A stretch of 64,000 nt of DNA from Cytophagales bacterium (GCA_024232295.1 JAAEPT010000129.1:3769-67768), one strand, 5' to 3'; counted from the first letter of the stretch, positions 20,317 through 20,777 are shown. The notes: generated by a model not told the origin, from the sequence alone. Made by a program: numbers and translations.

Positions 20317-20350
20317 ACAAAAAAGAGTCACTTTCCTCAAAGTAACTCTT
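20317..20350 (-). terminator. Intrinsic terminator of non-coding unit 2
   Basis: Minus-strand RNA AAGAGUUACUUU-GAGG-AAAGUGACUCUU then a U-run. The single imperfect pair is a G-U wobble only on the minus strand. Confidence 0.85.
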
Positions 20351-20457
20351 CTTAATAAATTGAATTTCAATAACACAAACCACCAAATTAAATTATACAA
20401 AATTCATAACAACAAAAAACACCTTTTTTTAATTAAATAACTCACCAGCTATTATTC
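20317..20457 (-). ncRNA. Candidate small RNA 2 (~140 nt), paralog of candidate 1
   Basis: Promoter-like TATATTAG at 20464-20471, terminator at 20317-20350, no ORF longer than ~5 codons from an ATG, motifs shared with unit 1. Ends are inferred. Confidence 0.5.
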
Positions 20458-20490
20458 ATAACACTAATATACAGTCTCTTAATTTTTTCA

Positions 20491-20533
20491 ACAAGTCACT
20501 TTGAGTGAACGGTAAGTATCACTTAGTGAACGG
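20491..20533 (-). promoter_or_regulatory. Tandem LytTR-type direct-repeat operator (unit 2)
   Basis: CCGTTCACT at 20525-20533 and 20504-20512 (minus strand), 9 bp plus 12 bp spacer, 21-bp period. Confidence 0.75.
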
Positions 20534-20561
20534 GATTTCTTTTATCTTTCTCTTAGAAAGG

Positions 20562-20594
20562 TAAAAAGAGTTGAATACGAGAAACAACTCTTTT
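20562..20594 (-). terminator. Intrinsic terminator of non-coding unit 1
   Basis: AAAAGAGTTG...CAACTCTTTT hairpin at 20564-20594 with T tails on both strands. Confidence 0.8.
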
Positions 20595-20701
20595 ATTATT
20601 GGATGATCAGCTAAACAAACAAACACCAAATAACGCTGACCAACAAATTTTTCAAATAAAACACACCTCTATGTATTTTCTGAATAAGAACCCTTAACTA
20701 T
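20562..20701 (-). ncRNA. Candidate small RNA 1 (~140 nt)
   Basis: Exact TAnnTTTG (TATGTTTG, 20708-20715) upstream, terminator downstream, no meaningful ORF. Ends are inferred. Confidence 0.55.
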
Positions 20702-20734
20702 ATGATACAAACATACAGTGATCAAGGCAGACTC

Positions 20735-20777
20735 ACAAGTCACTTTGAGTGAACGGCAGACAGGACTGAGTAAACGG
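20735..20777 (-). promoter_or_regulatory. Tandem LytTR-type direct-repeat operator (unit 1)
   Basis: CCGTTTACT (20769-20777) and CCGTTCACT (20748-20756), 21-bp period. The 22 bp at 20735-20756 are identical to 20491-20512. Confidence 0.75.

Follow-up and report, generated by a model that had tools for sequence, protein, structure and literature searches.

Between an oxidoreductase gene and a glycosyltransferase gene of a Cytophagales bacterium (GCA_024232295.1, JAAEPT010000129.1:3769-67768; this whole stretch of 64,000 nt is called the window, and positions are counted from its first letter), a gap of 500 bp holds two tandem units, read on the minus strand, which are probably a real, conserved, regulator-switched pair of small RNA (sRNA) genes. 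The most likely reading of the sequence is that they encode sibling sRNAs which act in trans and whose genes a LytTR regulator switches on. The fuller claim, that this gene pair also works by base pairing, is one we favor with somewhat less assurance. An earlier note on this DNA had already proposed sibling sRNA genes, each with a LytTR-type promoter and a terminator, under one two-component regulator. This proposal gains support from the presence of the tandem pair in two relatives, from the REC+LytTR regulator and kinase genes that adjoin it in one of them, from a core that lies in a predicted hairpin loop whose stems differ between lineages, and from the lack of any conserved reading frame.

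Two tandem units with LytTR-type boxes, promoter elements, and predicted terminators

The two units have the same layout, with the following elements:

20769-20777, minus strand: distal LytTR-type box of unit 1, CCGTTTACT, found in the sequence by pattern scan
20748-20756, minus strand: proximal box of unit 1, CCGTTCACT, found by pattern scan; it opens the identical 22-bp block at 20735-20756
20736-20738, minus strand: TTG resembling a -33 element, in the identical block of unit 1
20708-20715, minus strand: -7 promoter element of unit 1, TATGTTTG, matching the consensus TAnnTTTG
20563-20702, minus strand: predicted unit 1 RNA of ~140 nt, its 5' end placed from the -7 element
20605-20641, minus strand: central hairpin of unit 1 predicted by folding, with stem GGUCAGC/GCUGAUC and a 23-nt GU-rich loop
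20623-20628, minus strand: UGGUGU core in the loop of this hairpin, from folding and alignment
20563-20594, minus strand: predicted intrinsic terminator of unit 1, AAAAGAGUUG...CAACUCUUUUU, with a 10-bp stem, an 11-nt loop, and T5
20525-20533, minus strand: distal box of unit 2, CCGTTCACT, found by pattern scan
20504-20512, minus strand: proximal box of unit 2, CCGTTCACT; it opens the identical 22-bp block at 20491-20512
20464-20471, minus strand: -7 element of unit 2, TATATTAG, an imperfect match
20309-20458, minus strand: predicted unit 2 RNA of ~145 nt, 3% C, from folding
20362-20405, minus strand: central hairpin of unit 2 predicted by folding, GAAUUUUGU.AUAAU / GUUAU.UGAAAUUC
20379-20385, minus strand: UGGUGGU core in the loop of this hairpin, from folding and alignment
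20309-20353, minus strand: intrinsic terminator of unit 2 predicted by folding, with a 15-bp stem that includes one U-G pair, a GAGG loop, and U6GU5 (stem and T-run at 20320-20353)

The repetition was detected as a direct-repeat family, D1, whose two copies (20491-20542 and 20735-20786) lie 244 bp apart and are identical over their first 22 nt, in agreement with the spacing and the shared block described in the earlier note. The paired CCGTT(C/T)ACT boxes that it reported were also recovered. The window has exactly two matches to the pattern CCGTTYACT-N12-CCGTTYACT, at 20504-20533 and 20748-20777 on the minus strand, with 0.00 expected from 100 shuffles; they read CCGTTTACT-N12-CCGTTCACT in unit 1 and CCGTTCACT-N12-CCGTTCACT in unit 2. 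These two pairs are the only ones in the 2.94-Mb, 162-contig genome, even when 4 mismatches are allowed. Paired 9-bp repeats with a 12-nt spacer are a hallmark of LytTR operators, and this is the geometry found here: 9-bp direct repeats separated by 12 nt, with a period of 21 bp, within the range of two imperfect 9-bp direct repeats with a 12-13-bp spacer that defines such operators. The first six bases of the box equal the AlgR core, CCGTTC. The boxes also have a fixed position upstream of the core promoter, since the -7 element starts 32 nt past the proximal box in both units, the equal distance that the earlier note had pointed out. The consensus of this element in Bacteroidota is TAnnTTTG (PMC7366714).

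The two bodies carry only short, non-conserved open reading frames (ORFs), consistent with the ~140 nt without a real ORF claimed before, and both end in a hairpin followed by a U-run, with a long stem in unit 2 and a shorter, weaker one in unit 1. The unit 1 terminator is also weaker than those of the relatives, and it is the only terminator after the upstream oxidoreductase gene. The bodies align collinearly far better than shuffled sequences (z = 4.7; 0 of 1,000 shuffles as good) and share, in the same order, the motifs AGGTGTKTTTT, ATTTGGTG, and AAGAGTT, as the earlier note had it. The orientation is indicated by the folding, which is much more favorable for the sense strand than for its complement: unit 2 reaches -29.4 kcal/mol on the minus strand versus -9.7 on the plus strand, and the U-G wobble of its terminator, rightly described as valid on the minus strand only, becomes a mismatch on the plus strand. 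No known family was recognized, then or now. Rfam 15 gave 0 matches over the whole window at the gathering threshold, and at E values up to 10 the region had only chance matches to snoRNA and lncRNA families.

The identical block contains in addition a 5-bp inverted repeat, TCACT-CAA-AGTGA (20735-20747 and 20491-20503), which overlaps the proximal box. Among the units of the relatives, it is kept in the first unit of one of them (TCACT-CAAT-AGTGA in L055 unit A) and in no other.

A conserved core in a predicted hairpin loop

We could compare six units from three lineages, two units each: the window, L055 (GCA_024449665.1), and L056-L058 (Logan runs SRR26438983-6). Aligned with one another (A1), the six bodies have an invariant T-G-G-T-G-x-T core in common, and the AAAG(G/T)TrTTTTT block and the terminator are conserved as well. 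When each RNA is folded alone, the core falls in a hairpin loop in all six, with mean unpaired probabilities of 0.67-0.95. The enclosing stems differ between lineages: GGUCAGC/GCUGAUC in unit 1, GAAUUU.../...AAAUUC in unit 2, UUUCAAAG/CUUUGAAA in L055, GAUAAU/GUUAUU in L056_A, and UUUCAGUAUUUAAG/... in L056_B; the loops read AAUGGUGGUCAU in L055 and AUGUGGUGGUUAU in L056. We assessed these hairpins by shuffling the flanks 500 times while the core was held fixed and unpaired. An enclosing hairpin as good as the real one was obtained in 2 shuffles for unit 1, in 5 for unit 2, and in 67, 40, 42, and 7 for the four others. Their Fisher combination, calculated by hand, is ~3e-5, and it should be read as drawn from about five independent tests out of six, because L055_A and L055_B are near-identical.

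The RNAs would also have an unusual composition. Five of the six contain 3-6% C, and only 0.04% of the intergenic strand windows in the studied genome are as C-poor as unit 2. The terminators of unit 2 and of the relatives are strong, with 13-16-bp stems and long U-runs. The units have what one would expect of sRNA genes judged by sequence, i.e., their own promoter, their own intrinsic terminator, and no conserved ORF, and the models predict a conserved and accessible core as would befit an sRNA seed.

The sequence TGGTGG can be read as Trp-Trp in a short ORF, and the units could then be small peptide genes, either TrpL-like leaders or sources of a WW signaling peptide like ComS, a product to be expected in the neighborhood of LytTR quorum-sensing systems. 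ORFs span the core in five of the six units, and the peptides would be MRKVIFSYNFKEWWS in L055_A, MWWLLMKIQIK in L056_A, and MWWLFKYLK in L056_B. However, these ORFs agree neither in start codon and frame nor in length and the place of WW. Next to the core, an ATG opens the frame ATG-GTG-GTC in L055 and ATG-TGG-TGG in L056, and it is absent in the window, where both units have only GTG or TTG starts and unit 1 reads W-C. Furthermore, the 15-codon ORF of L055_A is destroyed by the loss of the ATG in the otherwise 95% identical L055_B, there are no trp genes or peptide exporters nearby, and the weak Rfam matches listed to E = 10 do not include Bacteroid-trp. We reject a peptide product because the ORFs across the core share no start, frame, or length in the six units, and we regard such an explanation as extremely improbable. 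A Trp leader attenuator of the TrpL kind was set aside on the same ground of frame, start, and length; what follows the units is a glycosyltransferase gene or a two-component system, not trp genes.

The loops raise another possibility, namely, that the RNAs are decoys that would offer Shine-Dalgarno-like GGUG and GAGG motifs to an RNA-binding protein, such as an RRM protein, or to ribosomes, without pairing to any mRNA. Each RNA has 1-4 GG(A/U)G or GAGG motifs, mostly in predicted loops, and they exceed the expectation from composition in five of the six units (P 0.016-0.076). In unit 2, four loops have one: that of the terminator and those of the 5', second, and central hairpins. The genome encodes a single RRM_1 protein (C152:24653-24862, in a 108-aa frame; L084), a possible RbpB-type chaperone, and in Bacteroides the RRM protein RbpB binds paralogous sRNAs (PMC11697453). 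Yet the enrichment is modest, L056_A has one motif only, the RRM protein has no known binding preference that matches GGUG, and the length and GU-richness of the unit 1 loop are more suggestive of an extended seed. A sponge of the CsrB/RsmZ type was considered for these GGUG/GAGG motifs and rejected, since the genome has no CsrA. Given the loop motifs, the absence of CsrA, and the one RRM protein, a protein-decoy mechanism may be considered, and we think it unlikely. We continue to favor sRNAs that pair through the core.

Conservation in relatives and rearrangement at the locus

The genes on the two sides of the units are as follows:

20789-22027, minus strand: HI0933-like/BaiN-type NAD(P)/FAD oxidoreductase gene, upstream; the synteny anchor common to the unit-carrying relatives
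19159-20286, minus strand: family-4 glycosyltransferase gene, downstream; it starts ~22 nt past the end of the unit-2 terminator U-tract

The contigs that carry the closest oxidoreductases (67-68% identity) bear the tandem pair directly downstream of them. In L055, the upstream synteny is kept as well, with OstA, TilS, and a 117-aa gene as in the window, and its units have ACCGTTYAY...ACCGTTYACTCAA boxes, TATGTTTG as the -7 element, and a strong terminator each. The units of L055 are then followed by the gene of a REC+LytTR response regulator and by that of a TPR-containing His_kinase (PF06580). Unit B ends ~85 nt ahead of the regulator gene, and we found no clear promoter between them. In L056, the second unit (L056:3486-3560) shows a change from CCGTT to CCATT in both boxes, with the RNA body intact; this could be a switch in regulator specificity or the onset of promoter decay.

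The downstream side has a different history. On the contigs with the closest glycosyltransferases (78-79% identity), a divergent flippase gene lies upstream and units are absent, and the glycosyltransferase gene of the window is without the ~185-bp upstream region and the divergent flippase/Wzy genes of these relatives (L050-L052). The order glycosyltransferase-deacetylase-MauG-MbnP of the window is kept in L051, another contig of a unit-carrying relative genome. Since this relative keeps the gene order elsewhere in its genome, we conclude from these comparisons that a rearrangement in the window genome brought unit 2 and the glycosyltransferase gene together and that the site lost the two-component system by it. 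The breakpoint lies at window positions 20287-20320, and the glycosyltransferase gene may now depend on read-through from unit 2.

Could the units be cis-acting leaders rather than sRNA genes? Each would then consist of a LytTR promoter, a leader, and a conditional terminator, with read-through into the two-component operon in the relatives (positive autoregulation) or into the glycosyltransferase gene here, and unit 1 might be the 3' untranslated region (UTR) and terminator of the oxidoreductase gene. This accords with the short promoterless distance between L055 unit B and the regulator gene, with the start of the glycosyltransferase gene so close to the unit-2 U-tract after the loss of its relatives' upstream region, and with an oxidoreductase gene that has no terminator of its own ahead of unit 1. 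But a leader has no need of two full promoter-to-terminator units in tandem, the terminators of unit 2 and of the relatives are strong, the units persist in the window although the operon they would have led is gone, and there is no conserved antiterminator pairing, RNAalifold finding the terminator only. Leaders are thus quite unlikely in our view, and we retain the reading of the units as trans-acting sRNA genes.

The family of the studied genome in GTDB comprises 13 genomes, among which it is the sole member of its genus. A DNA search of these 13 genomes returned chance fragments only, and the borderline matches of our covariance model of the units, R1, in the family genomes (E 0.3-0.9) are terminators of protein genes without boxes. 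Within the studied genome, nhmmer searches with whole units and with bodies found no third copy.

The cognate regulator

The studied assembly encodes two LytTR regulators, on C75 and C127, and neither operon has boxes upstream. A weak nhmmer match by the LytTR gene on C75 was discarded as chance, as it lies inside a convergent kinase gene. Orthologs of the L055 regulator are present in 9 of the 13 genomes of the family. In one of them (G009), a regulator-kinase operon 55% identical to that of L055 has a divergent box pair. There (L061:2248-2610), the pair CCGTTGACT-N12-CCGTTCATC has a -7-like element 32 nt away and is followed by a non-coding stretch of ~160 nt that contains a long perfect hairpin, a layout like that of agr P2/P3.

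For the window genome itself, either the cognate system lies in the missing 5% of the assembly, or the boxes are recognized by a different LytTR regulator, or the genes have recently become orphans. A stronger version of the last case is that the units are relics, once-functional sRNA genes whose cognate system was lost by rearrangement and which are now silent or expressed at a basal level. Synteny breaks directly after unit 2, no ortholog of the L055 regulator or kinase is found in the assembly, and, compared with the relatives, unit 1 has a weaker terminator and unit 2 a weaker -7 element. Long-term decay is argued against by the boxes, however, since all four are perfect to the consensus; the 22-bp promoter block is identical in both units, hairpins and core are intact, and the assembly is 5% incomplete and does contain two other LytTR regulators. 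We judge relics to be very unlikely, and regulator-switched sRNA genes remain the reading that we prefer.

A putative promoter module across Bacteroidota

To place the boxes in a broader context, we scanned one genome per species (185,579 species) with the pattern CCGTTYACT-N11-13-CCGTTYACTCAA. This gave 29 loci, ~23 of them in Bacteroidota (Sphingobacteriales, Chitinophagales, Cytophagales, and Flavobacteriales), compared with a chance expectation of ~3 by our own estimate. A TAnnTTTG-like element follows 31-33 nt past the proximal box in 13 of the 29 loci; these 13 loci are Bacteroidota, and the distance is the same in the relatives described above. Elsewhere, the proteins downstream of box pairs carry signal peptides and are secreted proteins or surface proteins of the type IX secretion system (T9SS). 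In six of the loci (L021, L024, L029, L031, L032, and L046), the box pair is instead followed by an ORF-free stretch of 100-190 nt that ends in a terminator, e.g., L024:212-460. Regulators most similar to the L055 LytTR regulator occur within 8 kb of 3 box-pair sites. The box pair with a -7 element at 31-33 nt appears from these sequences to be a Bacteroidota-wide promoter module.

Other searches had a lower yield. Among 401 genomes of the order, the pattern had 7 foreign matches versus 6 for the reversed control, of which 3 are real intergenic sites and the rest coding. A metagenome scan with the box pattern gave two unrelated loci only, a literature search for the box sequence returned primers only, and Rfam at the gathering threshold had no family at the box-driven units of 12 other box-carrying loci.

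Some details of individual loci are worth recording. What is encoded downstream of the boxes at L020, L037, L038, and L040 includes SprB repeats with a T9SS C-terminal domain, an outer-membrane beta-barrel, a subtilase, and one Por_Secre_tail cargo protein, and several further proteins downstream of box pairs have no Pfam match. The six ORF-free stretches, none of which matches Rfam, are candidate unrelated sRNAs, and some of them have GU-rich tracts just ahead of the terminator. Two loci outside the phylum, L044 (a Treponema metagenome-assembled genome [MAG]) and L023 (a Gemmatimonadaceae MAG), are long tandem arrays of a ~22-bp unit containing CCGTTTACTCA or CCGTTCACTC, and they match the box pattern only because of the periodicity of the arrays.

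Mode of action and candidate targets

In the mechanism that we propose, a phosphorylated LytTR regulator would bind both boxes, roughly at -45 to -75 from the start site, and activate the sigma-A promoter. The RNAs would fold into a 5' hairpin, a central hairpin, and a terminator, and the central loop would expose the UGGUG(G/U)U core as part of a stretch rich in G and U and depleted of C. Through this loop, the RNAs could then pair with the 5' UTRs or start regions of target mRNAs, thereby blocking their translation.

The earlier note had expected GU-rich cores to be complementary to A/C-rich translation-initiation regions. This did not hold up: in the studied genome, initiation regions are rich in A and U (0.41 and 0.33) and poor in C (0.115, with G at 0.14), and the pairing of the loops with them is no better than with controls. 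A genome-wide pairing scan, leaving out the antisense strand of the sRNA genes themselves, nonetheless put a single site at the top for the unit-2 loop. It lies on the minus strand at C9:4515-4560 (locus L083), in the 5' UTR of a CHU_C gene (AAGAAACAAUAACAUAAACACACCAAAUAAC-AUG), from -28 to -3, with a pairing energy of -26 kcal/mol over 21 bp (13 + 8 bp, with one bulge). The unit-1 loop has a perfect match of 12 nt to the same site, which ranks 63 of 15,835. The gene encodes a 1457-aa CHU_C/Ig-like T9SS surface protein, adhesin-like, and such a target is in keeping with the regulon of surface proteins that is under direct control of these boxes in other Bacteroidota. As only ~3% of the scanned positions are initiation regions, the site is suggestive only, and we regard the C9 gene as a tentative, rather doubtful candidate target of the sRNAs.

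Several results should temper confidence in regulated, base-pairing sRNAs. In the window, unit 2 has an imperfect -7 element and unit 1 an imperfect terminator. The assembly, which is 95% complete, lacks an ortholog of the L055 regulator and of its TPR kinase, the best match being the C127 regulator at 28.6% identity. The covariance model R1 scores the window units at 98.4 and 70 bits; neither it nor the DNA search found units in the 12 other family genomes, and the units are known from three lineages only. RNAalifold applied to the six bodies recovers the terminator only, and the evidence for the central hairpin comes from six sequences, about five of them independent. Regarding the targets, the loops pair with initiation regions no better than with intragenic windows, nor better than shuffled loops do (mean -8.6, -8.6, and -8.8 kcal/mol, respectively). 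The C9 site is ahead of the next genome-wide site by just 0.5 kcal/mol, the C38 paralogue of the C9 gene has no pairing site, and no ortholog of the C9 gene was found in the relatives for comparison. The loci of the relatives, finally, have no complementary sites beyond the trivial antisense strand.

Comparison with known systems and implications

LytTR regulators activate regulatory RNAs in Firmicutes in the AgrA-P3/RNAIII, FasA-FasX, and VirR-VR-RNA systems (PMC3673130). The proposed sRNA pair follows the same logic and would be a counterpart of these RNAs in Bacteroidota. In agr of Staphylococcus aureus, the LytTR regulator AgrA acts on paired direct repeats upstream of the promoter of RNAIII, whose gene lies beside the two-component operon and is its main output, and in both fasBCA-fasX of Streptococcus pyogenes and VirR/VirS-VR-RNA of Clostridium perfringens an AgrA-type regulator activates a small regulatory RNA (PMC3673130). 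The 9-bp boxes, the 12-nt spacer, and the two-component system adjoining the units in L055 are reminiscent of agr. In contrast to agr, the units have a Bacteroidota -33/-7 sigma-A promoter, a TPR-containing LytS-type kinase instead of AgrC, and no AgrB or AgrD genes, and they would produce two tandem RNAs of ~140 nt, whereas RNAIII is one RNA of 514 nt that also encodes a peptide and has no sequence or Rfam similarity to them. Further parallels are the position of fasX next to its own two-component operon and the VirR boxes, which are likewise pairs of direct repeats. Unlike the RNAs proposed here, FasX and VR-RNA are single RNAs of Firmicutes with unrelated sequences and with mRNAs of virulence factors as targets.

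Tandem paralogous sRNAs also have precedents. OmrA and OmrB of enterobacteria, reportedly described by Guillier and Gottesman in 2006, are adjacent paralogues that have separate promoters and terminators, are both activated by a single two-component regulator, and repress mRNAs of outer-membrane or surface proteins through a shared conserved region. The units resemble that system in the tandem paralogues, the separate promoters and terminators, and the single regulator. They differ in having LytTR boxes instead of sites for OmpR, a winged-helix protein, in a core in an internal loop instead of a seed at the 5' end, and in belonging to a phylum not known to have Hfq, on which OmrA and OmrB depend. 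Closer by phylogeny, GibS and FopS of Bacteroides thetaiotaomicron are paralogous sRNAs with an RRM partner that repress the translation of outer-membrane protein mRNAs by base pairing near the start codon (PMC7366714, PMC11697453). They share with the units the phylum, the paralogy, sigma-A promoters, and intrinsic terminators, and the studied genome also has one RRM protein. Yet FopS is 65-70 nt long, has a single-stranded 5' seed, and no known activator boxes, while the RNAs proposed here would be twice as long, with a core presented in a loop and LytTR-type boxes, and Rfam, including its deposited Bacteroides families, gave no match. Since no sequence is shared with the agr/Fas/VirR, OmrA/OmrB, or GibS/FopS systems, the units would represent a new RNA family of an already known kind.

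These results may have consequences for the study of regulation in Bacteroidota. Initiation of translation in this phylum is mostly not led by Shine-Dalgarno sequences, and post-transcriptional control is poorly charted. To our knowledge, Bacteroidota lack Hfq, ProQ, and CsrA; we know of few sRNAs in the phylum with a known upstream regulator, and of essentially no characterization of its LytS/LytTR systems. One may speculate, and we regard this as possible but doubtful, that the locus exemplifies a Bacteroidota equivalent of agr/RNAIII, in which TPR-sensor LytS/LytTR systems signal largely via C-depleted, GU-rich sRNAs with Shine-Dalgarno-like GGUG/GAGG loops and remodel T9SS-secreted surface proteins post-transcriptionally. 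Were this true and general, the very numerous LytTR systems of the phylum would have operator-driven sRNAs as one of their standard outputs. The locus offers a defined operator, CCGTTYACT-N12-CCGTTYACT, whose distance from the -7 element is fixed, a likely class of regulator (TPR-kinase/LytTR), and a conserved putative RNA output with its core, making a chain from signal to sRNA to surface protein directly testable at one site. More broadly, the operator pattern could provide a route to predicting LytTR regulons and new sRNA genes across the phylum.

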